A DNA stretch of 64,000 bases from a virus (IMGVR_UViG_2933953506_000002:51775-115774), one strand, 5' to 3'. Shown: positions 5,289-27,139, counted from the first letter of the stretch. Program-made: numbers and translations. The notes: a model not told the origin generated them from the letters alone.

Positions 5289-5305
5289 GAGCGGGCTCGC
5301 GGGCG

Positions 5306-5336: not shown

Positions 5337-5358
5337 TGCGGAGGGTTGTCCCGCAGCG

Positions 5359-5389
5359 CGCGACGCTAACCACCCGCACTGTGCATGGT
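5359..5389 (+). promoter_or_regulatory. Late-promoter-like motif CGCGAC-N19-CATGGT
   Basis: In-frame ATG at 5397 lies 7 nt downstream. Confidence 0.75.
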
Positions 5390-5396
5390 CCGCGCC

Positions 5397-11300: not shown

Positions 11301-14300
11301 GCGGTCAACGTCGCCGCGCTGGAGGCCGTGCAGCCGCCGGACCGCACCATCGGCCAGTTCACGCCTGAGATGGGCGCCCACTGGACGCCCCCAGAGCTTC
11401 TGCAGGGCTTCCTGCGCGAGTACCTGGGCGACCGCACACTCCGCGTCGCTCATGACGACCGGTACGGCTGGATTCTCAACACCGGCCGCGTGCCCGAGGC
11501 CAACAACGTCATGTACGGCGTCCCGGCCGTCGAGCCCGACCCGGAAAAGGGCATCAAGGGCAACAAGGGCAAGAACGCCGTGGAGATCGCCCGCGCGATC
11601 CTCGGCTTCGGCTCGCTGACCGTCTACGAGGACGACAAGCGCAAGGAAGTCGACGAGGCGACCTCACGTCTGATCCGGCAGAAGGCCGATCAGATGCGGG
11701 CCGAGTTCGCCAAGTACGCCACGGCGAACGCCGAGCGGCTGAGCGTCCTCACCGACTCGTACAACCGCATCATGAACGGGCACATCGTCCGTTCGTACGA
11801 GGGCATGTCGCCCACCCTCGAGGGCTTCACCCCCGACCGGAACCCGCACGCCTGGCAGCGCTCCGGCGCGGCCCGGATGCAGTTCGAGCGGGGCGTGATC
11901 CTCGCCCATGAGGTGGGCCTCGGTAAGACGTCCACGCTCGTCATGGGTACCCAGGCCCTCAAGGCGTCCGGGCAGATCGAAAAGCCCATGGCCGTGGTGC
12001 CGAACCACCTCGCGCGCCAGTGGTACAACGAGGCCCGGTTCCTGTACCCGAACGCCGACATCCACCTGATCACCTCGGCGGACCTGGCCGGCGACCGGCG
12101 CGGCAGCACGCTGGAGTGGCTGCGCGCCAACAGGCCGGACCTGGTCATCTTCACTGAAGAGGCGTTCGGCTCGATCAAGATGAGCCCGGAGGCTCAGGAC
12201 GAGTACGAGTTCCGGGAGCTGGAGGCGCTGCGCGAGCAGCTTGACCGCCAGTACGAGGACGCCGACAACCCGAACCACCCGTTCATCGTCGCGAAGATCG
12301 AGCAGCGCATCGCGACGGTCAGCAAGAACATCAACAAGAACGCCGCCCCGATGCGGCGACCGGGTGAGACGTACTGGGACGACCTCGGGTTCGACTACTT
12401 CGTCGTCGACGAGGCCCACAGGTACAAGGGCGTCGGCTTCCGCTCCAAGGAGGGTGGCGGCGACCCGGCGTCTATCCGCGGCGTCGACCTGCACCAGAAG
12501 ACGAGCGACCTGCACCGCCGCCGCCAGGGCCGAGCCACGATCACGCTCGCCACCGGTACGCCGCTGTCGAACAGCATCAGCGAGCAGTTCACCATGCTGA
12601 TGTTCGCGGCGCCGTGGGTGCTGGACGCCTACAAGGCGGGCGCCCCCGACCTGTGGGCCAACACCTTCGGCCGCAAGACCCTGCGCATCGAGAACGCCCC
12701 CGACGGCTCCGGCCTGCGCGTCGTGGAGCGGTTCTCCGAGTTCCACAACAAGCGCGCCATGAAGACCATGTGGGGCCTGGTCGCGGACACCAAGCGCGGT
12801 GACGACGTCGGCATTCCCCGTCCGAAGCTCAAGGGCGGCAAGCCGAACCTGATCATGGTCGACGCGACGCCCGACCAGAAGAAGCGTCTCAAGGGGCTCG
12901 TCGCCCGCGGCCGCGCGATCCACAACGGTGAGGTCGACCGCCACCAGGACAACATGCTCGCGGTGTCCAACGAGGGCACCAGCGTGGCCCTCGACCCGCG
13001 GCTCATCGACGCCAAGGCCCCGGCCGGCAACAAGCTCAAGGCCGTCGCAGACCGGCACATCGAGCGCTACCACCAGAACAAGGACCGGCTCTATCCGGTC
13101 GCCCTCGACAGCCTCGTCAACCACCCGGTACCGGGTGCCCTCCAGATGATCTTCCTGAACGAAGGCGTCCCGGGAGGCAAGAACAAGGGCAACTTCGACG
13201 CCTACGCCGAACTCAAGCGGCTCATGGTCGCGGGCGGCATCCCCGCGGACAAGATCGCCTTCGTTCAGGACGCCAAGAAGTCCGGCAAGCCCGAGGACAT
13301 GACGGAGCTGTTCCGGAAGGCCCGCGAAGGTGAAATCGCGGTCCTCATCGGCTCCAGTGCCGTCGCGGGTACGGGCATGAACGCCCAGGACCGCATGATC
13401 TCCCTCTCGCACGTCGACCTCGACTGGGGCGCCGCGCAGATGGAGCAGCGCAACGGCCGCATCCTGCGCTACGGCAATCTGAACCCCGAGGTCGAGATCG
13501 ACATCTACGCGACCAAGGGCTCCATGGACGGCTGGAAGGCCGGATTCGTCGCAGCCAAGGCCGAGGGCCTGGTCGACATCCAGCGGCCGGAGCCGGAAGA
13601 CGGCGACTCCAGCGACGTCGTCCAGGAGATCGACGGCGCCGAGTTCGACTACGAGACGATGGAAGCCGAGATCGGCGGCAACCCCTACATGAGCCAGCTC
13701 ATGAAGGCGAAGCGCCGTCTCAAGGACCTGGAGATCGACCAGCACAACGAGGCCGCCGAGCGTATCCGTCGCGCCGAAGCCCTCGATGCGCTGCGCCAGG
13801 AAGCCCAGGCCACCCGCGACGGTATCCAGCGCCGCGAGCAGGCCCTGCCCAGCATCCAGGAGGCCGACGACCGGTTCCGCATGACCATCGACGGCTCCCC
13901 GTACGGCGAGCGCTCCGACGCCGGCAAGGCCCTGCACCGGCAGATCACCTCCCGCCTCTTGGAGCACAACCGTGAGGGCCTGAGCGACTGGCACATCCTT
14001 GGCCAGTTCCGCGGCCTGGACTTCGGTGTCCGCACCGAGAAGACAGCGGACGGCAAGCTCGTCGCGCACGTCGGCTTCCCCGACCTGCGGCACTCCGACT
14101 TCGAGCGGACCGTGGAGGACCTGCAGAAGAAGGGCGCCGGGTCGGGCATGATCACCCGCCTCGGCAATGCCCTCGACAAGGCGCCCGCGTTGCAGGAGTC
14201 GGACCGGGCCAAGGTGCCGGAGCTGGACGAGCAGATAGCCCTGCTCCAGTCCGCGCACGCGGCCGCTGACCTCACTCCGCAGATCGACCACGCCCGCAAG

Positions 14301-17300
14301 CGGTCGAACCTGCTCGAGGAGATCGTCGCCCGCGTCACCAACCTGGACGCGAAGCCGGAGATCGACCCCGACGAACTCGACAAGGAGCGGTACAAGAACA
14401 AGGACGACCGCGAGAAGATCGCCAAGGGGCGGCGCGAGGAACGCGAGCCGCTGCAGGCCGCCGTCGACGAGGCCGTCGCGAACCTGCACCGCTGGGACGA
14501 GGAGAACCCGGCACCGGAGCAGGACGACACGGTTCGCCTCTCTGAGGACGAGGTGCGCGAAGCTCTTGCCCGTCTCCGCCCGGAGCCCAGCACTACCCCG
14601 CAGCCGGACGCCCCGGAGACCAGCGACCGCAGTTCCGCGGACGCCGACACCGACGTCGACGAGCCGAACACCGACGAGACGGCGACGCCTGACACCACCG
14701 GCGCAGGCAGCAGCGACGAGCCGCTGACCGACACGCCAGCCGCGGGCGACACCGGGGCCCAGAACAACGGCCAAGACCAGGACGACGTCGTTCGCCTCTC
14801 CGAGGACGAGGTGAACAACACCCTCGCCAGCATCCAGCCGGACGCCGACACGACCGCCACCGACGAGCCGGACGAGCCCCTTCGGTACGCGTGGGACAAG
14901 CCCGAGGACTTCGTCACCCTGACCATGCCGGCCGCACTCGTCAACTTCCTGAACGTCGACGAGACCGCCGCCATGGAGGACCCCGACACCCGGAAGGCTC
15001 TCAAGGAAGCCAAGCCGGGGCGCCGTGGCACGCTCCAGGTGACCGGCCCGATCGACGTACACCGCGCCCTCCTCCAGTGGGCATGGACGCTCGAGGGTGG
15101 AGAGGGGCTGGAGTCCGACCCCAGCGATGTCCGGGCCTACAAGGCGTACGCCAAGCGCATCGAGGAGGCCGACGCCGACCTGCAGCGCCGTCGCGCCGAG
15201 CGGGAGACCGCGGCCGCCGCTGACTCCGACGAGAACGACGACGCCCCGGAGACCGACGGAACGAACGACGGCGGCAGCGACGAGCCGCCGGCCGACGCGC
15301 CGAGCACGGCTGAGCCGGGCGACGAGAACGACGACCAGGACCAGCGCACAGCGGAGGACAGCGACACCGTCACCCTGACCCCGGACGAGGTGTCCGACCA
15401 GCTCGACTCTGTACGCCCCGAGGGGTCCAAGGCCCCGTCCTCGATGGACGATGGCGAGATCCGCGACGAGATCGTCGACCTGATGGGCCGGGAGATGGCT
15501 GATGAGCTGTCCGGCGCGGACCGTACCCGCCTGCAGGTCCTGGAAGCGGAGGAGGCCCGCCGTGCCGGCCGGGCCCCGAAGCAGGAGCCCAAGCCGAAGC
15601 GGACGACCGAGGAGCCCGGAGGACTCTTCGACGTCGACCAGCCCACCACCCAGCAGCCGAGCAGCGCCGCCGACGTCGACAACCCCGAGGACCAGCCCGA
15701 CGACCTCTTCGGCACGCCGGACATGATCGCCGACGCCGAGGGCCGCAGCACCGAGGGCCTGCGCCCGGCGCGCATGCGCAACGCCGCCGACCTGACCCAG
15801 GGCGACCGGTACACCGACGCAGACGGCCGCACGCACACCGTGTCCGAGCCGCCGGTCAAGACGCCTCGCGGCCGGACCCGACTCGTCACCGACGACGGCG
15901 AGGAGCGCTTCTACAACGCCGATGCCCAGGTGCGCCTGCGCTACCCGGACGAGGAGATCCCCGACAACGAGACCGACGAGCGGTCCGCCGACGACGATGC
16001 CGACAACGCCCCGGCCGTCGACGAACCGGAGACCTCCGAGCCGGACGTCGACGAGCCCGCCGCCGACGAGCCGGAAACTACCGCGGACAGCGACCGCAGC
16101 AGCACCAAGGACCGCGTCGACCGCATGTCAGGCCTCATCGACCAGGCCACCGACGGGGCGGGCGGTGACGAGCTGCCCGAGGTCAGCGAGATCCGGGACG
16201 CCTTGGGCCGGGCCGAGGACTCCGCCGACCCGGACGCCGAGCTGCGTTCCGCCGCCGACCGGCTCGACGACCTTGCGGAGATGTACGAGCTGGGAGGCCC
16301 GGACGGAGAGCACGCCGCAGACCTGTTCCGGCAGGCCGCCCGTATCGCGAGGGGCGAGGACGATGACGACCGCCGCGGCGACGACAACGACCGCAGCGAG
16401 GACGACAACGACGCCCCCGCCGCGACGAACCAGGACTCCGAGGAGGACCAGGACGACGACGCGGGACGCTTGCAGCGGGACGGAGACGGCAACGCCGCCG
16501 ACCCGAACGGCACCCCCGACGGAGGCGGCGCCGGTGCGCCCGACGCACCCGCCGACGACGAAGGCGACAGCGACAGCCCCGACGATGCCCCGGACAACGC
16601 TGACGACGAGCAGAACGAGCCGGACGCGGAGGACGAAGACGAGCAGGACGACGACCAGGAGCGCCGTCGCCGGCGTCGGCGCCGCCGCAACGGCGGAGGC
16701 GGTAACGGTGGCCCCGGCGGGCCTGGCGGCCCCGGACTGCCGCGCCTGAACCTCCCCGACCTCAAGACCCCGAACGCCAGCGGCGACGGCGGTGAAGGAG
16801 ACAGCGAGGACGGCGCTGCCGCCCGCGGCCGCCGCCCGGCCGCACGGCACCGCGACGTGGCGTCCCTGCGGCGCGCTTGGAAGAACGGCGACGGGCTCAC
16901 CGCCGCCGAGGACACCCCGGAGCGTCGCGCAGCCCTGGCCCAGGCAGCCGACCGGGACGGCCTGACGCTGTCCCCGGGCAGCGGCCTGGTCACATGGCCC
17001 GAACCGCAGGAAGACGGCACCACCCTGTGGCACTTCGCGCAGGCCCGGAACGGCAACAACCTGCCCGGCTTGTCCCTGGCCACGGACAACCCCGAGGAGG
17101 CCCGCGCCCTGGCTGGCCGCTTCGAGCAGATCACCGGCAGCGACGGTCAGCCCTTCGACTGGCACCGGCCGTGGGGCCCGAGCACCGTCACCCAGTGGCG
17201 CGACGGAGAAGGCCGCAACCTGCAGCGCGCCCTCCACGCCGTCCGCGACGACTTCGAGCAGCAGCGTGCCGCCTCCGCCCAGCCGGAGCCCACGACGGAG

Positions 17301-20300
17301 CCGGAACGGAGGGCACTGCCGGACGACCTCACCGGCCTGGACGACGACGAGCTGGTCGACGCGTGGAGCAACGACCTCAGCGACGAGGACCAGCAGCGCC
17401 TTATGGCGGAGATGGACCGCCGCGACGGCTACACCGACCAGCGCGTTCGTGACGTGCTGCCGGACACCCCGCCGGCCGACGCCGAAGAGGCCGAGCGCCG
17501 TGCGAAGGCCGTCGACGAGGCCCTCGGCTTCGGGGGCGTCGACGTCCCGCGCGTGCGCCGCACCCGTGAGGACATCATCCGTGCGGAGTTCGCCGACTTC
17601 GACGAGGCCCGCTACCAGGCCGCCATCGACGCCACGAACGGCTACTTCTACGCCCGGAAGTACAAGTACGGCAGCGGCATCAACGAACGAGAGCTGTTCT
17701 CCGGCGGTGAACTCGCCAAGTTCGGCCGCTGGGAGGAGTACGCCAGCGAGGAACTGAAGGACTGGTACAAGGCCAACGGCGGCCGCATCACGTACAACCA
17801 GTTCCGGCAGACCTACCGGGACAACGATCGCCGGGACCGGCAGCAGTTCGAGGAGGAGCAGCGCCGCCAGGCGGAAGTCGGGCAGACCGAGGAGCCCACG
17901 ACCCCGGAGACCGAGCCGTACGACCCGGCCACGCCGCGCTTCGCGGACGAGGCGGCCCTTCGGGATCACATCCGCAGCGGGCAGCTCGACGAGGTGCCCG
18001 AGGACCAGCGTGGGGACATTCCCTCAGCCGAGGAACGCGCGGAGATCGCCGATGCCGAGAGCACCCAGCTCTCCGACGGCGGCCGACTGCTCATCTACGG
18101 CAACGAGGCCGGTCGCGCTGGCAGCCGCCGCGGACAGCGGTTCGACGTGGCCCTTCCAGGCAGCATGCAGCCCCTGTTCCGCAACGGCTTCCACAGCGCC
18201 GAGGAGGCCCGCAAGTACGCCAGCGTCCTCGACGGCATCAAGGACACGGACGGCAACGCGTTCCCGTGGGACGCCCCCAACGTCGCCGAGCGCGCCCGCG
18301 CGTTCCGCACCGCCGACGGCAACCGCCTGTTCGACGAGATCACGGAACGCCTGTACGGCTTCAACGAGCTCTACGAGCAGTGGAACAGCGACCGCGGCCA
18401 GGCATTGCACCACCGGACGTGGAGCCAGCAGGAAGCCGACTGGAACACCCGCGAGGAGGAGGCCGGCTACTCGATCCCCGTCGACCTGACGGACATCCGC
18501 CCCGGCGACGAGATCAGCTTCCCCCTGGCCACGAGCCGCGGGCAGAACACGCGGCCGCAGGACGAGTACGTGGGAACCGTGCACGCCACGGTGACCGGCG
18601 AGGGAGAGCCCTTCCAGTACCGCTCGCAGTTCTCCGCCTTCGGGAACCAGCAGCTCTACCGGTTCCCGGCCGAAGGCTCTTGGACCAACCAGTACGGAGA
18701 GCACAGCGAGATCGATGAGGCGTTCCCGAACCTGGGAGTCGTCCGTCGCCGCCCGCGGCCCGACGAGGTGTCCAGCACGGGCGACGGCCGCGACGACCGT
18801 TCGTCCCGCGCGGACACCCCGCAGGCGGAGACGCCGGGCACCGCGACGCCCCCCTCGCGCCGGCAGCCCGCCCCGGACCGCGCTCCTGCGGAGCCGGAGC
18901 CCGCCGTGCCCTCGGCGCCGGCCGACGAGCCGCAGGGTGAACCCGAGCCCGTGGGCGGTCAGCCCGCACACTGGGCGCGTGTCCGCGACCTGGTGCCGGG
19001 CGACATGGTCCGTATGGAGGGCCGCACGAGGAACGGCCGCGCCATCACGCGGTCTGGTTACGTCTTCACCGGGCCCGTCGACGTGGAGGTCACTCGCAAC
19101 GGCCGCACGGAGCGGATGCTGCGCACGTACGTCACGGAGAACCCGGACGGCACCGGTAAGAGCGGCAACGTCTTCACGCCGCTGAACGCCACCGCGGCGC
19201 GGGCCGAGGCGCCCGACGACGTGGTGCCCGGGTCTCCGGCCAGCGGCGCTCAGAGCACCGTTCAGGCGGGCAGCCTCCCCGACGTGGTCCCCACGGACCG
19301 GAACGGCCGGGGCTTGTTCCCGGGTAGCACCGTCACCGGTGTTGACGGGCTGCGTACCCGTGAGGGCACCGTCACGGGCGCCACCAACACCACGGTGTCG
19401 GTGCGCTGGGACAACGACGACACCGCCGACGGCCTCTCGCCGAACACCCTCACCGTAACCGGTGGCGACCGCCCCGACGGCTGGACCTCGTCCGGGCAGC
19501 GCGTGACCCCGCGGCACATCGTAACCGACACCGAGGGCGCTCTCCTCGGGCCAGTCGACGAGGTCAACGGCGACCGCGTCACCATCACCACCGCCGAAGG
19601 CACCATCACGCGGAGCGCCGGAGACCTCCGCGTCGCCGGCGAAGTGCGCGACGACGCCCCGGGCACCGACCCCGTCACCGGCATCGACGACCCGGCGGCC
19701 GCGGACCTCAAGGAGGACGACGTCGTGGTCCTGGACCTCGACGGCACGCCGACCACCGTGGCGGTCACCGGTATCAACCGCGAAGGCGACCGCGTCACCA
19801 TCGACTTCGCCGACACCACCACGGGCGAGATCGGCCAGATCGACGTGGACGCCTCCCAGGTCATCCCCCGGGCCCAGGGCGCCGACGGCACCCCGCCCGA
19901 CCTCGGGCCGGACGACGCCCCAGACACCCCGGACGACCTAACCGTGCACGAGCCGCCGCACCGCGTCGAACCCGTCACCGGCCCGACCGTCGACCCCGAC
20001 CTCACGACGGGCGACCGAGACGTCATCGGTGACCTCGCCGACGGCCCGGACGACGACCCCGACGCCCAGCAGGCCGCCGTACGCATCACGGCCGACCTGC
20101 CCGTCACCCCGGAGCAGGCCGCCGCACTCGCCGCGCAACTCCGCGATTCCGCCGACCCCTCGACCCCGGAGGGCCGCGCCGCCCTGCGTGCCGCCAACCA
20201 CCTTGACCGGGCCATCGGCCGGACCCCTCCGCCCGAGCTCAACCGGCCGCGGCCGTCGAACGCCGCACAGGTCGCGGAAGACGACACGATCGCCATCCCC

Positions 20301-22445
20301 GACAACCAGGGCAACGGCGTACGCGTCTACCGCGTCCGGGGTGTCGAAGACGGCCCCGGCGGTACGCGCAGCCTCTTCCTGGAAGGCGAGGACGGCCGTA
20401 CACGCCGCCGCGTCGTCCACGGAGCGATGCCGCTGTGGCAGCTCGGTGAGCCCCAGTCGGACGGCGAGAGCGGACCGGACGACACCGCCCTCGTGCCGGG
20501 CGCCCCGGCTGCGCCGACCCCGAGCCTGCCGCCGGCCGGTGCTCCGCGGGACCCCAACCCGTCTCCGCAGTCCGACGCCGACCGCATCGTCGCCGACCAC
20601 CCCCGCGCCGTAGCTGCGCGGATCATCGACGCGGCGATTGCGGGCACCGAACCGCCCGGTGACATCCACGCGCTTCGTGAGCAGATCGCCCAGCGCCTCA
20701 CCGCCGAGGCCCTGCGCGATGCACGTCAGGCCGCTCGCCAGGACGCCGTGGCCGCGTTGGATGCCGCGGGCATCACCGGCCGCGACCGGTCCGCAGCGCT
20801 GCAAGCCCTCAAGAGGGCGCGGCAGAAGGCGCACACCGCGACGGTGCGCGCCGCCCTGCGCACCATCAACGACCTGGAGCCGCTGCCCGACGAGAGCGAC
20901 GAGGACCTCGCCGCGCGAGCCCGCGACCTCCTCAGCCTCATTCCCGACCAGATGGGAGGCACCCCCAACGGGCTCGACGACGACGGCGATGCAGACGTCG
21001 CCCGCACCGTCGCTGGGCACGTCGACGACGCCGTGAACGCGATCATGCAGCAGCTCCAGGCCGCGGGCATGGACCCGGGCGACGCCGACCGCATCGCCCG
21101 CCTCCTCACTCAGCAGATGAACGGCTCCCGACAGGCCACCGCCCGGCAGATCGCCCGTCGAGTTACGGCCGTGTCCCCGCAGGCTGGCCGCCAGCCGGGT
21201 CTGCTCGCCCGGATCGTGGCCGCGCTCGTCCGTCTCGCCAAGCGCTTCGCGGAACTTGTGCGGGCCGGAGCCCGGAAGATCGCAGGGAAGTACCGCAGTG
21301 CCCGCGAGCGGCTGCGTCGTCTGCGCGCCTTCCTCGGCCGCCTCGCCCGTCGCGTGCGGGAGTGGCCGGAGTCCCGGCGCCTGGCTCGCCTGCACCGCGC
21401 CCTCGACCTGCCCGGAGCCGACGGCGAGTCCCTGGCCGCCCGGATCTCCCACTGGGCCGGCCTGATGCCGGAGGCCGGACGCTTCGGTCAGGCTCAGCGC
21501 CGTGTCACGTGGTGGAGGCCCACGACGTGGGCGCAGCTTGCCGCCGGACGACTCCCTGGCCGAAGCGACCGCACCCAGTGGGCCCCGGACCAGGCCGCGG
21601 ACGCTGGCCCCGGCCTGACCGCGCTCCGCCACCTGGCAGCGCTGAGGGCGGCCGGCGGCGACGTCGACCAAGACGTGACCCGCCGTCTGGCCGACACTCT
21701 CGGCGACGACTTCGGCGGCGACCCTCACGGCACGCTGCAGCGCGCGGACGACTACGTGGCGCTCACCGAACGCCGCCTGGTCAACCTCCAGGCCGCGCGG
21801 ACGGGCGGCACCCTGCCGGATGACCCCGACCTCGAGGTCGAGATCACTGCGGCTCGGGCCGAAGCCGCGGCCGCGCGCCGAGAGTGGGCGGACCTGCGGG
21901 CTCAGTACGCCGCGGCGGTCCCGGACGCGGTCGCGGCGACCCTCGCCGAGATCCGCGACATGGGACCTGCGGGGAACGCCGGCATCGTGTTCGGCCCGGA
22001 CTCCACGCCGGACGCCGAGCGGGCCGTACGGGGCGTGCAGCGCATCGTGCCTCAGGCGTGGCTCAACACCCCGGCCACGCGCCGACTGACGGCCGTTGAC
22101 GGCGACGAGGGCCGCTACGAGCCCGACGGACAGCGAATCACCGTCGCCGACCTCGCCGACGACGGGCTGGGCACCGCCGGGCACGCCCTAGCGCAGCACC
22201 TTGCCCAACACCTGGGAGACCTGGACGCCGCCCAGCGCGCGTTCTGGTTCAACCAGACCCACACCGGCCGACCGGGCGCCCGCCGCATGCGGCGCAGCAC
22301 CCTCAGCCGCATCCTGCGTCGCCAGCAGACGCAACCGGACACCGGTGACACCCTCGCCCGGTCCGTTCAGTCGATGTTCAATGGCGACTGGTACCTGGAT
22401 GACGACCTGCGGGCGTTCCTCCTGGGCCTGCTCGCCACCCGATGA
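5397..22445 (+). CDS. Giant DarB-like polyvalent protein (~5,682 aa): N6-adenine methyltransferase + SNF2/SF2 helicase + repeated domains
   Basis: HYTP, LEAGSGAG (motif I) and GNVPF (motif IV) at ~9780-10055; AHEVGLGKT, VDEAH, ATGTP and QRNGRILR at ~11900-13470; located in the head module. Confidence 0.9.
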   Translation: MLNRPTAQAESQDLSRDLEVKVTRRPWNPALHPRDSKGRFIETGGVVRTWGGKLARVIRALPHDRILVQDQTGPDEFRGRRHTTSAKWVSMVARPDGSAPTDDEEKVAEEDERRTQDPRRGNGVARDDDGDPNTPNEPHDQDDKGRPIGADDGDGPDDDDDQDEPEDGAHPVNVDALPNQQHAAGARYADTAAVRRHFMQVAAQPGTSTDMATFLRSVAHDDDLRTTPSGRLLILLDDRPEHAGRWNLTATGSGQRVDAAGTFATAEDAARFAEHLDKTAVNGQLTKFQQPFDFSDPQLDRAAHDWRSTKGENIQGAIQRARTEFDGTPAPAAAPKATTDSPTDGNGQRFSTLQAVRAHWQQRLDQINELGPDSLREQRAARHLEGLIGNDRIKLVGRGQFVVGQDQNGEWYLVATGNGLPLRRRWTSQQEAQAFAQSFTENAPMGDDGKPLDLSDPNVRIATWRSDDNRSISEVIDAAAERFQRDDAAEGGPEATPAPAAAPETPAAPQAPETPEEPQTPALPGNAEPVEGVEGYHYVNDGGSITLYGPDGQVAATSERGYPPKAKIDGVTVPVPQYPKQGAAVMARLHRAAQNPDQRDRITAAWVMKPGKEGKPAKRVMVFRGTIKGDERDYSAVGSTRAIKWAPSLRGYSTQSNMTEATRDERITEVLSKLARQGRNIHVTDETAAGTPNAPANAVDETEALREAIANADDPRLSQMKHERWGMLNSTRSEAKRKRLNSEIEMINEELKRRRQERDEAAARDATSLSDDDIANRIRESQEERGTYGSRRGQEANDVERAIYSERRRRSQALVDDDTDLTTAAEDDLVKARETIAERVRMHQAAGDDPEAERIMRQALQARHDAVVGEQQRRHAQQIADRPPVVDLTDEELSQEYNDLLRRDFRKAPPEAQQVLEGRMEDVKRERRDREKRAITDRDAPENLSDEDLKAEYTELRRTRSSYTGTDDVKAARKERMAVLEAEQNRRSTTPEVEQLVARVDNPDDNGMISIGGGSDYGYVDYRDQTHGHTTREIGWTWGKHSWGHADTAYPSRAAALAAMVQAYDNDPDTRGERTWGRKRPVFVPKMFVELYQNERLRDRLADASEERKYLYSLFRDRYGWDDGVNPLVPSNKKGHHIKGRKLWVPEGLLAELNRVTEELSREMSVRATDRDADSSDRQKAKTRLASINVALHGIEALRESVRKNGGDDDRKVISREEIEAQQAALRAALGGDDDEHVQSDGPGSLADVPAQGVGGDDRSGGVRGDEGQGDRDSDSEGRGGAGADGSGADGVRGAGRPAQADQGGRNGDGPGGSSAGAGARGGDGAGADADGAAPAGDQGPDVRRVARFRPDPADAPKGARARATANVEAIRVLKKVEAENRPATDEERRILARWSGWGSVPILFANEPNEKEPRYQQGGTRYGKFAKDHERWSEYSDIRSELQRVLTPVEFRQASRGVLSMHYTPQPIAEAMWEGLRAFGFERGDVLEAGSGAGTFFGVAPDGARLTGVELDPTTARIAQAIYPHANVLNESFAETDARPGTFDAAIGNVPFARVPFDDKRYPAESLHNGFVTKEIALVRPGGITAVITSRQTLDSKGDKARRQMAKYGDLVGAVRLPSGVFTDAGTGVTTDVLVFRRREDGTEPADTSWLDAPERDINGTAHHINAYFDEHPEHILGTLTTQSGPYGPEVTVKGDPAKAAEQLRAALDDIATKAKADGRGYEPHPDGDNRPPVQLQAAREKHANDWTGRLYEGDDGQLYQHVNGAEPVLLEPADGNTAQLRALMQLRDVAAELRELDRKNDEEERAEALRAQLRDLHAAYVAEYGPLSKPGQHRTKGGRPTAWGYFRADPDAAAVLALERWDANKGEPVLSRVFTERAAARRQPLSSTNDPKAALAAVVAAKGEVDLGEIARLLDVTPQEAVKRLGNEVFTDPETGRLELASAYLSGAVRDKLDAARKAAERDPAYAVNVAALEAVQPPDRTIGQFTPEMGAHWTPPELLQGFLREYLGDRTLRVAHDDRYGWILNTGRVPEANNVMYGVPAVEPDPEKGIKGNKGKNAVEIARAILGFGSLTVYEDDKRKEVDEATSRLIRQKADQMRAEFAKYATANAERLSVLTDSYNRIMNGHIVRSYEGMSPTLEGFTPDRNPHAWQRSGAARMQFERGVILAHEVGLGKTSTLVMGTQALKASGQIEKPMAVVPNHLARQWYNEARFLYPNADIHLITSADLAGDRRGSTLEWLRANRPDLVIFTEEAFGSIKMSPEAQDEYEFRELEALREQLDRQYEDADNPNHPFIVAKIEQRIATVSKNINKNAAPMRRPGETYWDDLGFDYFVVDEAHRYKGVGFRSKEGGGDPASIRGVDLHQKTSDLHRRRQGRATITLATGTPLSNSISEQFTMLMFAAPWVLDAYKAGAPDLWANTFGRKTLRIENAPDGSGLRVVERFSEFHNKRAMKTMWGLVADTKRGDDVGIPRPKLKGGKPNLIMVDATPDQKKRLKGLVARGRAIHNGEVDRHQDNMLAVSNEGTSVALDPRLIDAKAPAGNKLKAVADRHIERYHQNKDRLYPVALDSLVNHPVPGALQMIFLNEGVPGGKNKGNFDAYAELKRLMVAGGIPADKIAFVQDAKKSGKPEDMTELFRKAREGEIAVLIGSSAVAGTGMNAQDRMISLSHVDLDWGAAQMEQRNGRILRYGNLNPEVEIDIYATKGSMDGWKAGFVAAKAEGLVDIQRPEPEDGDSSDVVQEIDGAEFDYETMEAEIGGNPYMSQLMKAKRRLKDLEIDQHNEAAERIRRAEALDALRQEAQATRDGIQRREQALPSIQEADDRFRMTIDGSPYGERSDAGKALHRQITSRLLEHNREGLSDWHILGQFRGLDFGVRTEKTADGKLVAHVGFPDLRHSDFERTVEDLQKKGAGSGMITRLGNALDKAPALQESDRAKVPELDEQIALLQSAHAAADLTPQIDHARKRSNLLEEIVARVTNLDAKPEIDPDELDKERYKNKDDREKIAKGRREEREPLQAAVDEAVANLHRWDEENPAPEQDDTVRLSEDEVREALARLRPEPSTTPQPDAPETSDRSSADADTDVDEPNTDETATPDTTGAGSSDEPLTDTPAAGDTGAQNNGQDQDDVVRLSEDEVNNTLASIQPDADTTATDEPDEPLRYAWDKPEDFVTLTMPAALVNFLNVDETAAMEDPDTRKALKEAKPGRRGTLQVTGPIDVHRALLQWAWTLEGGEGLESDPSDVRAYKAYAKRIEEADADLQRRRAERETAAAADSDENDDAPETDGTNDGGSDEPPADAPSTAEPGDENDDQDQRTAEDSDTVTLTPDEVSDQLDSVRPEGSKAPSSMDDGEIRDEIVDLMGREMADELSGADRTRLQVLEAEEARRAGRAPKQEPKPKRTTEEPGGLFDVDQPTTQQPSSAADVDNPEDQPDDLFGTPDMIADAEGRSTEGLRPARMRNAADLTQGDRYTDADGRTHTVSEPPVKTPRGRTRLVTDDGEERFYNADAQVRLRYPDEEIPDNETDERSADDDADNAPAVDEPETSEPDVDEPAADEPETTADSDRSSTKDRVDRMSGLIDQATDGAGGDELPEVSEIRDALGRAEDSADPDAELRSAADRLDDLAEMYELGGPDGEHAADLFRQAARIARGEDDDDRRGDDNDRSEDDNDAPAATNQDSEEDQDDDAGRLQRDGDGNAADPNGTPDGGGAGAPDAPADDEGDSDSPDDAPDNADDEQNEPDAEDEDEQDDDQERRRRRRRRRNGGGGNGGPGGPGGPGLPRLNLPDLKTPNASGDGGEGDSEDGAAARGRRPAARHRDVASLRRAWKNGDGLTAAEDTPERRAALAQAADRDGLTLSPGSGLVTWPEPQEDGTTLWHFAQARNGNNLPGLSLATDNPEEARALAGRFEQITGSDGQPFDWHRPWGPSTVTQWRDGEGRNLQRALHAVRDDFEQQRAASAQPEPTTEPERRALPDDLTGLDDDELVDAWSNDLSDEDQQRLMAEMDRRDGYTDQRVRDVLPDTPPADAEEAERRAKAVDEALGFGGVDVPRVRRTREDIIRAEFADFDEARYQAAIDATNGYFYARKYKYGSGINERELFSGGELAKFGRWEEYASEELKDWYKANGGRITYNQFRQTYRDNDRRDRQQFEEEQRRQAEVGQTEEPTTPETEPYDPATPRFADEAALRDHIRSGQLDEVPEDQRGDIPSAEERAEIADAESTQLSDGGRLLIYGNEAGRAGSRRGQRFDVALPGSMQPLFRNGFHSAEEARKYASVLDGIKDTDGNAFPWDAPNVAERARAFRTADGNRLFDEITERLYGFNELYEQWNSDRGQALHHRTWSQQEADWNTREEEAGYSIPVDLTDIRPGDEISFPLATSRGQNTRPQDEYVGTVHATVTGEGEPFQYRSQFSAFGNQQLYRFPAEGSWTNQYGEHSEIDEAFPNLGVVRRRPRPDEVSSTGDGRDDRSSRADTPQAETPGTATPPSRRQPAPDRAPAEPEPAVPSAPADEPQGEPEPVGGQPAHWARVRDLVPGDMVRMEGRTRNGRAITRSGYVFTGPVDVEVTRNGRTERMLRTYVTENPDGTGKSGNVFTPLNATAARAEAPDDVVPGSPASGAQSTVQAGSLPDVVPTDRNGRGLFPGSTVTGVDGLRTREGTVTGATNTTVSVRWDNDDTADGLSPNTLTVTGGDRPDGWTSSGQRVTPRHIVTDTEGALLGPVDEVNGDRVTITTAEGTITRSAGDLRVAGEVRDDAPGTDPVTGIDDPAAADLKEDDVVVLDLDGTPTTVAVTGINREGDRVTIDFADTTTGEIGQIDVDASQVIPRAQGADGTPPDLGPDDAPDTPDDLTVHEPPHRVEPVTGPTVDPDLTTGDRDVIGDLADGPDDDPDAQQAAVRITADLPVTPEQAAALAAQLRDSADPSTPEGRAALRAANHLDRAIGRTPPPELNRPRPSNAAQVAEDDTIAIPDNQGNGVRVYRVRGVEDGPGGTRSLFLEGEDGRTRRRVVHGAMPLWQLGEPQSDGESGPDDTALVPGAPAAPTPSLPPAGAPRDPNPSPQSDADRIVADHPRAVAARIIDAAIAGTEPPGDIHALREQIAQRLTAEALRDARQAARQDAVAALDAAGITGRDRSAALQALKRARQKAHTATVRAALRTINDLEPLPDESDEDLAARARDLLSLIPDQMGGTPNGLDDDGDADVARTVAGHVDDAVNAIMQQLQAAGMDPGDADRIARLLTQQMNGSRQATARQIARRVTAVSPQAGRQPGLLARIVAALVRLAKRFAELVRAGARKIAGKYRSARERLRRLRAFLGRLARRVREWPESRRLARLHRALDLPGADGESLAARISHWAGLMPEAGRFGQAQRRVTWWRPTTWAQLAAGRLPGRSDRTQWAPDQAADAGPGLTALRHLAALRAAGGDVDQDVTRRLADTLGDDFGGDPHGTLQRADDYVALTERRLVNLQAARTGGTLPDDPDLEVEITAARAEAAAARREWADLRAQYAAAVPDAVAATLAEIRDMGPAGNAGIVFGPDSTPDAERAVRGVQRIVPQAWLNTPATRRLTAVDGDEGRYEPDGQRITVADLADDGLGTAGHALAQHLAQHLGDLDAAQRAFWFNQTHTGRPGARRMRRSTLSRILRRQQTQPDTGDTLARSVQSMFNGDWYLDDDLRAFLLGLLATR
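9097..9435 (+). CDS. TnpV-like protein (112 aa) nested in the +1 frame of the giant gene
   Basis: GGGAGG RBS at 9086-9091; protein-like sequence MTNMFSPMVRDHWRTYRPKEW...; the giant-gene frame here is G/D/A/R low-complexity. Confidence 0.8.
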   Translation: MTNMFSPMVRDHWRTYRPKEWAAMTDPEAFVETKAREIETQILKAEEALEQTVPEPTEYEEQVGRHKQIRADATAMVLADLLPEPEPGAETAPEQTPMEQHLQEIRDLMYDA

Positions 22446-22455
22446 GGAGGTAGCC

Positions 22456-22725
22456 GTGCCGTTCACTGTCACCGGCGCGTTCGACGACGGGGCGACCTAC
22501 AGCGTGCAGGTCACCGGGCGGGCCGACCGCCCGGTGATCGGGTCGTACCGGGCCAGCGCCCTGGTGGAGCTCCACCAGGGGAGCCCGATCTCCCTGTCCC
22601 CGACCGGCCCCGTCCGTACGGTGGCCGGGGACGATGAAGCGACCGTGCTCGCAGTGCTTCGGGAGTACACCAGGGTCGTCGAGGAGGGGCCTGGCGCTCC
22701 CCGGCAGGCCAGTGTTCCCGGGTGA
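22456..22725 (+). CDS. Small hypothetical protein coupled to the giant gene
   Basis: GAGGAGG RBS overlapping the giant-gene stop; GTG at 22456. Confidence 0.75.
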   Translation: MPFTVTGAFDDGATYSVQVTGRADRPVIGSYRASALVELHQGSPISLSPTGPVRTVAGDDEATVLAVLREYTRVVEEGPGAPRQASVPG

Positions 22726-22732
22726 TTCAGGC

Positions 22733-22763
22733 GCTTGTGTAATTGCGCAAGAACGATCTTGGG
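22733..22763 (+). repeat. 31-bp operator-like repeat, copy 2
   Basis: GCTTGTGTAATTGCGCAAGAACGATCTTGGG, 4 mismatches to copy 1. Confidence 0.85.
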
Positions 22764-22784
22764 CCGGGGTGGGGCAGTTGTGGC

Positions 22785-22814
22785 CGGGACACAAGCGGCC
22801 CCGCCCGTCATCCT
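22785..22814 (+). promoter_or_regulatory. Variant late-promoter-like motif CGGGAC-N18-CATCCT
   Basis: In-frame GTG at 22821 lies 6 nt downstream. Confidence 0.55.
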
Positions 22815-22820
22815 CCGCCC

Positions 22821-23426
22821 GTGACCAGATACGGATTCGCCATCAAGGCTCTCCCCAAGGGCGGTAAGCCGTTCGGGGACGAAGAAGACGACGAGCAGCC
22901 CGAGGGCACAGAGGAGGAGACGCTCGAAGGTGACGACCCCTCAGCGGCCTTCGAAGACCCTTCCGCCGACATGGGCCAGGACCCCCTGGCGCCGCCCGAG
23001 GACCCGGCCGCGCCGCCAGAGGAACCAGCCGCCGAACCACCCGCAGAGAGAGCCGAGCCCCCGGCCGAGGGCGAGGAGCCGGTCGACGCACCGGAGCCGC
23101 CAGCCGACGACGCCCGGCCGTGGGCCGGCGACATGTACGACGAGGGAGACGAGACCGACCCGGCCGACTCCTTTTCCGCGTACACCGGCAGCAACGGTGA
23201 ACAGGCTTGGTTGGACCGGGCCCCAGACGGCACACTGACCGGGTGGGTCAGGGACGGTACGGGCCAGGTGTGGCGCTACACCGATCCGGACGCGTGGGCG
23301 ATCGACGTGGACGGCGCGCACATGACCCGCACGCACAGCCAGGCCGACGACCCCTCCGCCCCGCCCGCGGACGCCCCACCCGGCAACCGCGGCGTACAGG
23401 ACTCGATGTTCCAGCAAGGGAGCTGA
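22821..23426 (+). CDS. Acidic Pro-rich hypothetical head-module protein
   Basis: ORF with a D/E/P-rich N-half and a Trp-rich C-terminal domain; start inferred from the promoter motif. Confidence 0.75.
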   Translation: MTRYGFAIKALPKGGKPFGDEEDDEQPEGTEEETLEGDDPSAAFEDPSADMGQDPLAPPEDPAAPPEEPAAEPPAERAEPPAEGEEPVDAPEPPADDARPWAGDMYDEGDETDPADSFSAYTGSNGEQAWLDRAPDGTLTGWVRDGTGQVWRYTDPDAWAIDVDGAHMTRTHSQADDPSAPPADAPPGNRGVQDSMFQQGS

Positions 23427-23427
23427 C

Positions 23428-23637
23428 GTGCAGTTGAACCGCAGCACCGCCCTCGCGCTCCAGCAGGAGGGCAAGGCCGCCTTCGAGGCGGGCGACCCCG
23501 CTGACTCCAGCCCGTACAACAGGTTCGGCAACGCGGAGCAGCAGTTCGGCTATCAGTTCTGGACCCGCGGCTACATCACGGCGCGTTCGACGGCCGAGGG
23601 CGCCCAGGAACCTGCAGGAGCCAGCGCAGGACGTTAG
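23428..23637 (+). CDS. Small hypothetical protein
   Basis: AAGGGAG RBS; 69 aa with SPY...W..GY pattern. Confidence 0.7.
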   Translation: MQLNRSTALALQQEGKAAFEAGDPADSSPYNRFGNAEQQFGYQFWTRGYITARSTAEGAQEPAGASAGR

Positions 23638-23696
23638 CCAGACGCGAACGACACGGTGCCCGGCGGCCCACTGTCCACCGCCGGAGGTTCCCCGCC

Positions 23697-25625
23697 GTGC
23701 CGAGCGCTCCACCCACCAGATCGTCACACCCGAACACCCTGCGAGGCACCAGCCGGGCAATCTACGCCGTCACTGGCGTGGTCGACGAGGTCAACGACCT
23801 CATCGTCCCCGGCGCCTTCGCCCACACCCTGGCCACCCGTCGCGTCAAGGCTGTATGGCACCACGAATGGAAGGACGCCGTCGGCGTCGTCCTGCACGTG
23901 GAGGAGTGGCTACCCGGCGACCCCAGGTTCGCCGACGTCCCCGACTGGCCCGCCGAGGCCGGCGCGCTGGTCGCAACCGTCGAGTACAACCGGCGCACCA
24001 GCAAGGGCCGCGACACCTACGAGCAGGTCAAGCAGTGGTACGAGCACGGCGAGGCCGCGTTCTCCATCGGCTACCGCGTGCCCGCAGACGGAGCCACCCG
24101 CCGCGGTGACGGCGTCCGCGTCATCCACCGCCTCGACCTGTTCGAAGTGAGCCCCGTCCTGCACGGCGCGCACCCGATGACCCGGGCGCTCGAGGTCAAG
24201 GCCGCGGCCAACCCCGGCATGGAGTACAAGGCGACGCCAAACGTCGTCGAACTCGACACAGGGAAAGACGAGGACCGCATCAAGGTCGCCGGACTCGTCC
24301 TCAAGGCCGAGGACACCGGCCGCGTCCTGCTCATCCAGCGCGCACTCGACGACGAGGACCCGGCCGCTGGAACCTGGGAGTTCCCCGGCGGCCACCTGGA
24401 GAAGGACGAGGACGCGCTCGCCGCGGCGCTGCGCGAGTGGCAGGAAGAGACCGGCGCCGAACTCCCCGGATCGGCAAGCGTAGTCGGCTCCTGGACCGCC
24501 CCGAACGGCATCTATCGCGGGTTCGTAGCCATAGTCCCCGGCGAGTCCCACGTACCCCTGAACCAGCCCCCCAGCGAACGACGGGTGACCAACCCTGACG
24601 ACCCCCAGGGCGAAACGCCAGAGGTCACCGCCTGGTGGCCGATCACCGCCCTCCCCGACATGTCCCTGCTCCGCCCCGCCTGCCGTGAGACCCCCTGGTC
24701 CCTCCTGGCAGGCGCCACCCTGCCGCAGGGCCCGGCGGCCAAGAAGCCCAGCGCCGAGGCCGAGCAGTTCGCCGCCGGCGTCATGAACACCTACGCCGCT
24801 CTCGGCACCACGGAAGCGAAGTCCGCGCACGTCGCAGTAGCCGCCGCCCGCTCCGTCCAGCCGCGCATCGAGCACAAGTCCGCCCGCTCCACGGTCGCCG
24901 AGGCCAAGAGCCATCCCACGCCCCTCTCGGAGGCTTCTGTGATGTCCCGCACCCCCCTGCCCGAGTCCCAAGAGCAGTTCCGTGCCCGCCTCTCCGACAG
25001 CGTCCGCGAACTCCTCGACCAGGACGGCCAGACCTGGACGTGCGTCGAAGGCACCTACCCGGACCGCGTCATCGTGTCCGTACACAGCGAGGACGAGCGG
25101 CGCAGCAGTTACTACGCCATCCCTTACACGGCCGCCACGAATGGCGAGATCAGCCTCGGCACCCCTCAGCCCGTCGAACTCGCCACGGTCGTACTCCCGG
25201 AGGGCGCCAGCGCACAACGCACGGCCACCGACGCGGAAGACGTCGACGCCCGCGTCGTGCAGCCCACAGTGGAAGCCCTCGCCGACGCCACCGCCCGCAT
25301 CAACACCACCGAGGCTGACCCGGACCAACTCACGGGCGTACGGGACAAGGTGCGCACGCTGATCGCCGCCCTGTCCGCGAAGGGCCTCGACGTCGCCGGC
25401 GACGCCAGCGAGCCGACGTCCGCCCCCGCCCGGGACCGCCTGGCCGGCCCCACCGGCATGGACCTGTGGGACGACTACACGTTCGCCGACGACGAGAACG
25501 ACGAGGTACCCACGGAGGCGGCTCCGCCGCCCGCCGAGGAGGACGTCGACGCGGAGGACGACCCGGACACGGTCCGGCTGGACGAGGACGAAGTGAAGTC
25601 CGTGCTCGCCATGATGCGGAGCTGA
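23697..25625 (+). CDS. HK97-type prohead protease fused to a NUDIX hydrolase and a scaffold-like C-terminus
   Basis: DLIVPGAF, WHHEW, FSIGY and LFEVSPV protease motifs; Nudix box GGHLEKDEDALAAALREWQEETG. Confidence 0.88.
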   Translation: MPSAPPTRSSHPNTLRGTSRAIYAVTGVVDEVNDLIVPGAFAHTLATRRVKAVWHHEWKDAVGVVLHVEEWLPGDPRFADVPDWPAEAGALVATVEYNRRTSKGRDTYEQVKQWYEHGEAAFSIGYRVPADGATRRGDGVRVIHRLDLFEVSPVLHGAHPMTRALEVKAAANPGMEYKATPNVVELDTGKDEDRIKVAGLVLKAEDTGRVLLIQRALDDEDPAAGTWEFPGGHLEKDEDALAAALREWQEETGAELPGSASVVGSWTAPNGIYRGFVAIVPGESHVPLNQPPSERRVTNPDDPQGETPEVTAWWPITALPDMSLLRPACRETPWSLLAGATLPQGPAAKKPSAEAEQFAAGVMNTYAALGTTEAKSAHVAVAAARSVQPRIEHKSARSTVAEAKSHPTPLSEASVMSRTPLPESQEQFRARLSDSVRELLDQDGQTWTCVEGTYPDRVIVSVHSEDERRSSYYAIPYTAATNGEISLGTPQPVELATVVLPEGASAQRTATDAEDVDARVVQPTVEALADATARINTTEADPDQLTGVRDKVRTLIAALSAKGLDVAGDASEPTSAPARDRLAGPTGMDLWDDYTFADDENDEVPTEAAPPPAEEDVDAEDDPDTVRLDEDEVKSVLAMMRS

Positions 25626-25849: not shown

Positions 25850-27139
25850 ATGCCCGACAACGCTCGCATCAAGGAACTGCAGAAGCAGCTCCAGGCCAAG
25901 AGCGCCGAGGCCGAGGAGATCAGCAAGTCCTTCAAGGTCGAGGACGGCGGGTTCGTCGTCTCCACCGAGCAGGCCACGAAGTTCCGTAGGATCTCCAGCG
26001 AGGCGCAGGAGATCAAGTCCCTCATCGACGCCGAGCAGGGCCTGATCGAGGTCAAGCAGTACCTCGACACCCCGGAGACCACGCCGGCCGCGGCCGCGCA
26101 CTACGGCAAGACGCCGACCCTGGAGGAGAAGTCCCTCGGTGACCTGTTCATCGAGTCCGACTCCTTCAAGCGCGCCAGCGCCTCTGGGTTCGACGACCGC
26201 CCGTACATCCGCTCCGCGATGGAGGGGAAGTCGATCTTCTCCCTGTCCGCGGGCACCGTCACGCACCAGACCCTCGGCAGCGTCCAGAACCTGGGCATCG
26301 CCGAACGGCAGTTCCGCAAGTTCCACATCCGGGATCTGTTCCCGAAGTCCTCGACCAAGCAGGCCGTCCTCTACGGCGCCCGAGAGACCGGCTGGACCAA
26401 CAACGCCCGCCAGGTGAAGGAGCGCTACGCCGCCGACGGGACCAGTCCGGCGACCGGCGCGGACACCGACACCTGGGGCCGCGCACCGCGGTCCAAGCTG
26501 GCCCTTACGCCGGTGATGTACCCGGTTGCCGAGATCGCGCATTTGATCGATTCCCACAAGAACATCCTCACGGACGAACCGCGTCTGAAGACGTTCATCA
26601 ATGGGCGCATGGTCGAGGGGGTCAAGTACCAGGAGGACTGGGACCTGCTCCACTCCGTCGGCGACGGCCAGTCCCTCACCGGCATCTACAACACGCCGGG
26701 CGTCCAGCAGTACACCGGCCTTGCGGCCGACAAGTACAGCGTCCAGATCCGGCGCGCCATCACCAAGGCGCTCCTGGCTGAGTACGAGCCGACCGGCATC
26801 GTCCTGTCGCCCACGATGTGGGAGCACGTCGAGGTCGAAGAGGACGACAACGGCGCGTTCCGCGTCGCCGTCGCCGTCGCCATCGGCGCGGAGAAGAAAG
26901 TGTGGAGGCTGAACGTCGTCGAGACCACGGCCATGGCAGACACGGACTTCCTGATCGGCGCCTTCGGGTTGGGCGCCCAGTTGCACGACAGGGAGAACGT
27001 CAGCGTCACCGTCTCCTCGGAGAACGCGGAGAACTTCGAGAAGGGGCTGATCACCTTCCGTGCGGACGAGCGCGTGGCCCTTGAGGTTCCGCGTCCCGAG
27101 TCGTTCGTCATCGGCACCTGGACGCAGCCCACCGGCTGA
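25850..27139 (+). CDS. Major capsid protein (HK97 fold)
   Basis: Coiled-coil delta domain, IAHLIDSHKNILTD, GDGQSLTGI, FEKGLITFRADERVALEVPRPESF. Confidence 0.93.
   Translation: MPDNARIKELQKQLQAKSAEAEEISKSFKVEDGGFVVSTEQATKFRRISSEAQEIKSLIDAEQGLIEVKQYLDTPETTPAAAAHYGKTPTLEEKSLGDLFIESDSFKRASASGFDDRPYIRSAMEGKSIFSLSAGTVTHQTLGSVQNLGIAERQFRKFHIRDLFPKSSTKQAVLYGARETGWTNNARQVKERYAADGTSPATGADTDTWGRAPRSKLALTPVMYPVAEIAHLIDSHKNILTDEPRLKTFINGRMVEGVKYQEDWDLLHSVGDGQSLTGIYNTPGVQQYTGLAADKYSVQIRRAITKALLAEYEPTGIVLSPTMWEHVEVEEDDNGAFRVAVAVAIGAEKKVWRLNVVETTAMADTDFLIGAFGLGAQLHDRENVSVTVSSENAENFEKGLITFRADERVALEVPRPESFVIGTWTQPTG

Follow-up and report, generated by a model that had tools for sequence, protein, structure and literature searches.

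In the 64,000-nucleotide (nt) window analyzed here (IMGVR_UViG_2933953506_000002:51775-115774), which makes up the right end of a virus record 115,774 nt long, the 19-residue C-terminal tail of an S78 prohead protease was found to be repeated three times inside a giant multi-domain protein encoded upstream of it. The repeated peptide is a real motif that is specific to the protease and the giant, is conserved at the protein level, and is predicted to form an isolated helix in linkers of low model confidence. The element that carries it is a Gilgamesh-like Streptomyces phage; in its nearest named relative, Streptomyces phage Gilgamesh (129 kb), the protease shows 67.6% protein identity and the DNA matches at 78% over part of the region. 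We suggest, with a probability of roughly 0.5 and by analogy with known capsid-loading systems, that the motif is a shared prohead-docking peptide that would load both the protease and the giant into the capsid, the most economical reading being that both proteins offer the same peptide to the same partner.

The tail, DTVRLDEDEVKSVLAMMRS, occupies positions 25566..25622 of the window, with the stop codon at 25623-25625, and closes a 642-amino-acid (aa) fusion protein (23697..25625) in which Pfam, AlphaFold2, and Foldseek delineate an S78 prohead protease domain, a Nudix domain, and a further C-terminal domain. The giant is a 5,686-aa multi-domain (polyvalent) protein and candidate capsid cargo that is encoded in a single open frame (5385..22445) and is the ortholog of Gilgamesh gp48; it, the protease, and all features described within them lie on the plus strand. 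Each giant copy was scored with a position-specific scoring matrix (PSSM) derived from 96 non-redundant protease tails, all from other elements. Copy 1, DTVRLSEDEVREALARLRP (14526..14582; aa 3048), starts 8 residues past a DarB-like enzyme module and is identical to the tail at 12 of 19 positions, with a PSSM score of 26.6; copy 2, DVVRLSEDEVNNTLASIQP (14784..14840; aa 3134), shares 10 of 19 positions and scores 24.5, and copy 3, DTVTLTPDEVSDQLDSVRP (15363..15419; aa 3327), shares 9 of 19 and scores 14.3. The tail and these three copies had been picked out in a first-pass annotation of the sequence, and translation recovered all of them where they had been placed.

Several controls bear on the specificity of this likeness. 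The next-best stretch of the giant reached 6 of 19 ungapped identities with the tail, and upon shuffling within 60-residue blocks, which preserves local composition, the best identity was 5-8 in 299 of 300 shuffles, 9 in one, and never higher. For the tail PSSM, 100 shuffles gave a null maximum of 5.7 and a mean of -11, and the identity and PSSM results thus exclude chance. At the DNA level, the tail and its three copies show synonymous differences, indicating that their likeness is held, and that selection acts, at the level of the peptide. Six-frame motif scans of the window and of the entire 115,774-nt record returned four sites only, all in the protease or the giant, and no further open frame in related loci scored as a motif match. 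Motif detection was based on an ungapped matrix scan with shuffle controls; a six-frame scan with a 19-column HMMER profile missed the giant copies, as this approach penalized the 5,691-residue frame for being long and biased in composition. Comparison of the protease with the giant by BLASTP yielded weak alignments (best E values of 1.4e-4, 7.1e-4, 0.001, and 0.002), of which the two best and one weaker (E 0.014) were anchored on the motif and two others fell in acidic low-complexity sequence, with no clear larger common domain. Within the giant, no motif copy was found in the more than 2,000 residues past copy 3, which include long acidic linkers, and no significant copy in the region before the DarB-like module.

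Conservation of the tail was assessed among homologs of the protease fusion, of which 454 were retained at E <= 0.001 from 8,000 candidates scored; the named ones are nearly all from Streptomyces, and many belong to contigs of about 125-130 kb. The tail is preceded by a hypervariable acidic linker (aa 566-623; 25392..25565) with a column conservation of 0.45, compared with 0.80-0.85 for the domains, and conservation returns to 0.80 in the tail itself, close to the 0.85 of the catalytic domain. The tail was present in 118 of 120 protease homologs, a descriptive count since the scoring matrix was built from the same tails; in 112 it ends exactly with the chain and in 6 another 2-17 residues come after it, while the two misses comprise one frameshifted-looking C-terminus and one highly diverged tail. 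The fusion therefore carries, as judged from conservation, model confidence, and the 118 of 120 occurrences, a conserved non-catalytic C-terminal segment on a flexible linker, the arrangement expected of an HK97 gp4-like targeting segment. Within the linker, about 30 residues before the tail, lies a conserved island, GMDLWDDYTF (aa 587-596; 25455-25484), with the pattern G-M-D-L-W-D-x-x-T-F, whose L590 and W591 are invariant in 70 homologs. The tail is also kept in listed homologs (P0106 onward; P0106-P0122) in which 2H/2'-5' RNA ligase Pfam domains replace NUDIX, and the protease may bring a swappable enzyme into the head. A search for stand-alone short proteins resembling herpesvirus UL26.5, consisting of the C-terminal domain and tail, gave 5 short matches that are probably fragments.

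The first-pass annotation had made its proposal depend in part on the motif being shared by both proteins in homologous phages, and this is what was found. Among 112 giant homologs (3,419-6,321 aa), the protease-derived matrix detected one full copy in 35 giants, two in 33, and three in 12, a total of 80 with at least one, and found none in the other 32; a matrix built from the giant copies detected a variant at the position orthologous to copy 3 in 28 of the 32 giants without a full copy. These variants mostly read ...V[T/I]L[S/T]PDEVNAPAAAAxA. Detection is reciprocal, in that the giant-derived matrix recovers the protease tail with a score of 21.0 against a null maximum of 8.1. Copy 3 is the most widely conserved copy, with an ortholog or variant in most of the 112 giants, and its core, TVTLTPDEV, is unchanged in each of the 6 relatives aligned, inside a hypervariable linker. 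For the giant of Gilgamesh, a strict regular expression returned no copy, and a half-motif scan together with alignment revealed the conserved TVTLTPDEV. A scan of genome contigs with alignment A2 yielded 7 loci only.

Comparison of the copies defined a core of [D/E/G]-T-V-x-L-x-x-[D/E]-E-V-x-x-x-L-x-x-hydrophobic-R within the 19-residue peptide and separated the giant copies into two classes. The R-type copy (TVRLSEDEVRxxLARxRP) directly follows an inserted enzyme module, which is either DarB-like (ending at about aa 3040 here) or, in six giants (P0140, P0152, P0167, P0188, P0190, and P0231), UvrD-like, and the T-type copy (TVTL[T/D][P/R]DEV[S/A]xQLDA[V/I]RP) follows a small folded domain. 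In a sample of 96 non-redundant protease tails and 67 and 69 giant copies of the two classes, V3, L5, [D/E]8, E9, V10, L14, the hydrophobic residue at 17, and R18 were each 76-100% conserved in the tails and in both giant classes, and positions 4, 6, 11, and 19 were class-specific. At position 19 the protease has Ser or Gly followed by the stop codon, and 123 of the 137 giant copies have Pro, a pattern that fits a single structural unit closed by either the chain end or a helix breaker. From these sequences the tag appears to move with the enzyme module, and the motif appears to work either at a chain end or internally, given that 6 of the 118 tails carry 2-17 extra residues and that all giant copies are internal. 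The length of the giants correlated with their copy number (Spearman rho 0.76, n=112, uncorrected for phylogeny).

The predicted structures agree with a motif of this kind. In AlphaFold2 models, which are monomeric and silent on a binding partner, the tail consists of a short coil and a helix at residues 630-641 with a predicted local distance difference test (pLDDT) score of about 77, and linker residues 568-627 are below 50. The modeled giant copies likewise begin with a short coil or strand and continue as a helix of 10-11 residues that starts at DEV, with pLDDT 57-75, between linkers below 50; in copy 1 this helix is DEVREALARLR, at about 75, again followed by a linker below 50. No motif site falls within the high-confidence blocks of a folded domain. 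The acidic disordered linkers to which the copies had been assigned by the first-pass annotation are borne out by these low-confidence flanks and by composition, as Asp, Ala, Glu, and Pro together account for 56% of the 30-residue stretches that precede 137 copies. An isolated helix of this kind, set in linkers of low confidence, is the hallmark of a short linear motif whose folding accompanies binding.

A role of the giant as capsid cargo is plausible from its DarB-like module, its multi-domain organization, and its position in the head module. The central module (about aa 1434-3040; 9684..14504), identified by PHROG and Pfam, combines a DarB-like methyltransferase with an SNF2-type helicase: about 1,600 mid-giant residues match phrog_10089 ('DarB-like antirestriction') at E 3.8e-254, and the Pfam matches in it are N6_Mtase, SNF2-rel_dom, ResIII, and Helicase_C. 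The giant thus possesses the methyltransferase and helicase module, homologous to DarB-type proteins, that characterizes DarB-like antirestriction, and, like a polyvalent protein, it joins disparate domains in one chain encoded between the portal-MuF and protease genes. Outside the DarB-like module no family match was obtained, and several stretches there show conservation when compared with Gilgamesh gp48. A small folded domain (LRYAWDKPEDF...; 14877..15239) between copies 2 and 3 was modeled with pLDDT 82-94 (model residues 145-265) and is kept across relatives (alignments A2 and A5). The N-terminus of the giant (window 5385-5600) is a conserved region that contains NPALHPRDSKGRF. All 5 related records tested with a 333-aa N-terminal query gave a match, each 146-330 residues long, among them records whose giants lack the motif, and this region is a candidate primary incorporation or portal-binding region. 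The giant, which alone was counted in this respect, contains no cysteine among its 5,686 residues; this absence may reflect a need for unfolded passage through the tail or the avoidance of disulfides in the capsid. In a chromosomal relative (L018), the giant is found in two overlapping frames (4634-10561 and 9901-17715) with one motif copy each, a division that is either a frameshift or a genuine split.

In the mechanism that we propose, the peptide would be a short linear docking motif, in which a few extended residues are followed by a 10-11-residue amphipathic helix, displayed on a flexible acidic linker. The tail at the C-terminus of the protease-Nudix fusion would recruit that fusion into the assembling prohead, where the likely contact would be the inner face of the HK97-fold capsid protein or the scaffold-like extension at its N-terminus, in line with reports on HK97 gp4; the giant would be tethered at the same sites several times over, enclosed, and later ejected with the DNA. 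The head-gene block runs from a portal gene with a weak MuF-like match through the giant, a few small frames, and the S78-NUDIX protease to the HK97-fold capsid protein, and no separate scaffold gene was recognized in it, including between the protease and capsid genes. The major capsid protein (25850..27139, plus strand; Pfam Phage_capsid, E 2.9e-30) is 69-94% identical in relatives, and its start at MPDNARIKELQ was set by alignment with them. The Phage_capsid match spans residues 219-443 of the 449-aa frame, which leaves a long N-terminal extension upstream that is a candidate scaffold or delta domain and the presumed docking partner. This gene order, together with the HK97 and herpesvirus precedents, makes the prohead shell interior the likeliest partner, and by analogy the peptide would bind the capsid protein and cause encapsidation.

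The precedents share some features with the present system and differ from it in others. For HK97, a 2013 study by Duda et al. reportedly has a title that concerns 'mechanisms of protein encapsidation'. GFP fused to a segment of HK97 gp4 becomes encapsulated in HK97 particles (review, PMC11626933). As in HK97, an S78 protease is combined here with a capsid protein whose N-terminal extension is scaffold-like, no separate scaffold gene lies between the two genes, and a non-catalytic C-terminal part, putatively in our case, directs encapsidation. Unlike gp4, with which the comparison is one of arrangement, the protease here is fused to Nudix and a further domain in a chain of 642 aa, its tail is a discrete 19-residue motif on an acidic linker of about 60 residues, and the motif is also repeated in a second, giant protein, for which we met no counterpart in the available text on HK97. 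The herpesvirus major capsid protein likewise has the HK97 fold. In herpesviruses, the UL26 protease-scaffold and the UL26.5 scaffold have in common the C-terminal 25 residues, a capsid-protein-binding segment that is lost by cleavage at the M site (PMC12474303), and the herpesvirus protease belongs to the assemblin/S78 fold class (PMC12474303, PMC5512222). There too a protease-bearing protein and a second protein carry the same peptide; however, the herpesvirus genes are nested in frame and the tail is cut at the M site, whereas the copies here are separately encoded and lie inside a different protein.

Phage proteins that are ejected with the DNA provide a further comparison. P1 DarB is packaged into the capsid and has an N-terminal targeting signal (PMC9024508), and the targeting signals of T4 and P1 are N-terminal peptides of 10-30 residues, those of T4 binding the scaffold core and being removed by the protease, with no common consensus among the signals of the P1 Dar proteins (PMC9024508, PMC7411985). 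These are likewise short peptides that load ejected proteins of the anti-restriction type, and P1 DarB is the functional namesake of the central module of the giant; the motif described here differs in being internal or C-terminal, present in several copies, and common to the protease. It is located at aa 3048, 3134, and 3327 of 5,686 in the giant and at the C-terminus of the protease, and not at an N-terminus as in T4 and P1. Packaging, and injection together with the DNA, has been predicted for polyvalent proteins whose genes lie among virion genes (Iyer et al. 2017, PMC5512222), and the giant similarly combines methyltransferase, helicase, and uncharacterized modules and is encoded among virion genes. 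The packaging of P1 DarB and the predicted packaging of polyvalent proteins make a cargo role of the giant plausible. The logic set out by Iyer et al. differs in that it involves MuF/portal fusions and embedded peptidases, and no mention of a repeated linker peptide shared with the prohead protease was met in the available portion of that work (PMC5512222). As judged from its sequence, the motif is not a member of any family tested. Encapsulin cargo-loading peptides are short conserved peptides on flexible linkers that dock cargo inside an HK97-fold shell and can be transferred to foreign cargo. This comparison is functional only, as the sequences differ, the shell in our case is a phage capsid that packages DNA and is encoded beside portal and tail genes, and the cargo would coexist with DNA and be ejected.

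A number of findings weigh against a docking role for the copies. That the giant is present in the virion is itself something that we infer. Its N-terminal region may, by analogy with P1 DarB and the T4 internal proteins, contain the real or primary incorporation signal. By their sequences, 28 giants keep only the variant in which the residues of the amphipathic helix are lost, and in many smaller giants the single copy is reduced to its first half. No significant copy was found in 4 of the 112 giants or in those of two further elements, L022 and L023; the latter elements retain their protease tails, and the copies are consequently not the sole loading route and are dispensable or replaceable in some lineages. 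Co-variation between tail and copies, which the first-pass annotation had put forward as a check, was not seen on inspection of the homolog sequence lists (the giants of L004 and L005 carry TVHL and their tails TVRL), a result that is also expected if the receptor is conserved, as is the capsid protein. The same annotation had listed a weak fourth copy, RKVISREEIEAQQAALRA (nt 9027-9080), which did not hold up statistically: its score was -6.0 against null maxima of 5.7-5.9 for the tail matrix, and 4.0 against a null maximum of 8.1 for the matrix of giant copies. The probability that we assign to docking takes into account that capsid binding is deduced by analogy, that some giants have no copy, and that the N-terminal region may be the primary signal.

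The site of this presumed fourth copy nevertheless marks a conserved element, DRKVISREEIEAQQAALRA (9024..9080), whose PSSM scores under the null maxima do not make it a significant motif match. The longer stretch KVISREEIEAQQAALRAAL (window 9024-9095) is almost invariant in all 64 giants that match there by BLASTP among the 112 searched; it ends the N-terminal region and precedes a long Gly/Asp/Arg-rich linker ahead of the methyltransferase module. Its location at the end of a module is comparable to that of the motif copies, and it may be a highly diverged relative of the motif.

A further point against docking is that its main rival, a role in recognition or cleavage by the S78 prohead protease, fits the same data almost as well. 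Here the giant would be a polyprotein cut at its linkers, in the head or after ejection, and the protease tail would be an autoprocessing site, a bound product, or a pseudosubstrate. The copies indeed lie at module boundaries, immediately past the DarB-like or UvrD-like insert and past the small folded domain, and the extended TVRL segment could pair with the substrate groove of the protease. Processing of polyvalent proteins by embedded or associated peptidases, including assemblin-like ones, has been proposed (PMC5512222), and head proteins of SPN3US and T4 have common short cleavage motifs, the SPN3US protease also autocleaving its C-terminal propeptide (PMC7411985). However, 19 constrained residues with an amphipathic helix face (V10, L14, 17, and R18) far exceed known prohead-protease sites, and helical cleavage sites are rare. 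The conserved K-SLG of the capsid protein (alignment A4), which we take from the HK97 analogy to be its likely maturation site, is unlike the motif, and a cleavage site 19 residues from the end of the protease would have no evident purpose unless the tail also docks. The linkers past copy 3 and the region before the DarB-like module are devoid of significant copies, and this scarcity argues for docking, for which a few tags would be enough, whereas release of the giant module by module would need more sites. We therefore regard cleavage as the sole function as unlikely, while cleavage and docking may coexist, as in herpesviruses, whose protease cuts the capsid-binding tail off at the M site.

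The constraint common to the three classes of motif shows that they have a common partner and does not identify it, so that the motif might coordinate assembly or activity and not capsid loading. It could bind the portal, or the MuF-like part thereof, or a chaperone of phage or host origin, or could join the protease and the giant to each other. Proteins of the MuF family belong to the head and have been linked to effector delivery (PMC5512222), and the portal here is weakly MuF-like. In the related myoviruses Cantare and ChisanaKitsune, proteins encoded between portal and protease have a common N-terminal motif instead, which implies that loading signals in the wider group are not all protease-tail-like. 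Against such a partner, the motif is absent from the portal-MuF protein and from every other frame, so that self-association among many head proteins is not indicated; the combination of an S78 C-terminal tail with a capsid N-terminal extension is the HK97 arrangement, in which the partner is the shell interior; and no direct evidence favors any of the alternatives, which together we consider rather improbable. A motif devoid of shared function, whether a relic of domain shuffling or duplication in acidic linkers or a generic linker helix for solubility or spacing, is very improbable. Copies 1 and 2 do have a run of about 24 nt in common, which suggests a fairly recent duplication, and the second half of copy 3 has decayed to an Ala-rich stretch in many giants; yet the same eight positions are conserved in three separately evolving classes despite the synonymous differences, the surrounding linkers are hypervariable, the tail persists in nearly all protease homologs, and chance is excluded by the shuffles.

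The three folded domains of the protease fusion were characterized individually. The Peptidase_S78 (PF04586) match (E 1e-10; 42.4 bits against a cut-off of 21) places the protein among the S78 prohead proteases, and H55, H56, and S123 (FSIGY) of this domain, which are candidate catalytic residues, are invariant in 70 aligned homologs. The NUDIX domain matched Pfam at E 3.4e-17, and in a Foldseek comparison of the protease model with the PDB, all of the matches listed were Nudix hydrolases, with none among them bearing on the C-terminal domain. The latter is the third folded domain and comprises aa 421-565, with pLDDT 76-88.

Upstream of the giant, the portal protein (2587..5046, plus strand; Pfam Phage_portal, E 5.2e-42) carries a weak C-terminal match to Phage_Mu_F at aa 735-810 (E 4.8e-05), whose 24.5 bits are under the cut-off of 29.6; its Gilgamesh ortholog is annotated as 'portal and MuF-like fusion protein'. 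A GT4-family glycosyltransferase (440-1606), including a match to the 'GT4-conflict' family, is encoded upstream of the portal gene, and the frame directly after the capsid gene (27480-28742) is the positional ortholog of a Gilgamesh 'metallophosphoesterase'. The GC (guanine plus cytosine) content of the window is 63-75% per 2-kb step. In Streptomyces assemblies, many of the homologs belong to contigs of about 124-132 kb, with two labeled as plasmids, and others are in multi-megabase contigs. The family looks like one of large phages or phage-plasmids, and these contigs suggest that it is both extrachromosomal, as phage-plasmids, and integrated.

Beyond this family, the protease domains of Cantare (a Brevibacterium phage; L024) and ChisanaKitsune (a Gordonia phage; L025) are 43-49% identical to the one described here, have different C-termini, and are accompanied by neighbor proteins without copies of those C-termini in the N- and C-terminal ends inspected; the generality of the pattern is thus not established. 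In these phages, separate genes lie between portal and protease (7454-10576 in Cantare and 9208-13205 in ChisanaKitsune), comprising an RNA ligase, an ADP-ribosyltransferase-annotated gene, a 969-aa HNH-annotated gene, and Cantare gp11. Three proteins of this interval have a common N-terminal pattern (...VR.V....WG.PYGTPI / ...VRTVEGARMYGQPIG), which could be a different head-loading signal.

What is new here is the repetition of a protease tail in a separately encoded giant, its internal placement, and its apparent travel with swappable cassettes. In the titles and abstracts of the literature searched, no description of the motif and no publication on Gilgamesh-like phages was found, and virion proteomes in supplements may bear on the former. 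The entry of very large ejected proteins into the head is known for a few model phages with N-terminal signals (T4 and P1), and the loading determinants of giant polyvalent proteins are essentially unexplored; a peptide common to protease and giant, kept in more than 100 Streptomyces elements, makes this question directly testable. Should the motif prove to be a cleavage site instead, it would provide the first defined specificity for S78 processing of a polyvalent protein. If it binds the capsid, the logic of the capsid-binding tails of HK97 and herpesviruses would extend to multivalent cargo loading, and the peptide would be a compact tag with which enzymes could be loaded into actinophage capsids, a phage counterpart of encapsulin cargo peptides that could be placed internally in foreign proteins destined for phage heads. 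We tentatively extend this to a portable cargo-loading code for a DNA-filled HK97-fold capsid, in which each swappable DarB-like or UvrD-like cassette would bring its own tag, an extension that we consider possible, if somewhat doubtful. Such a code would load the maturation protease together with a 0.6-MDa anti-restriction polyprotein, by means of a tag repeated after each enzyme cassette.

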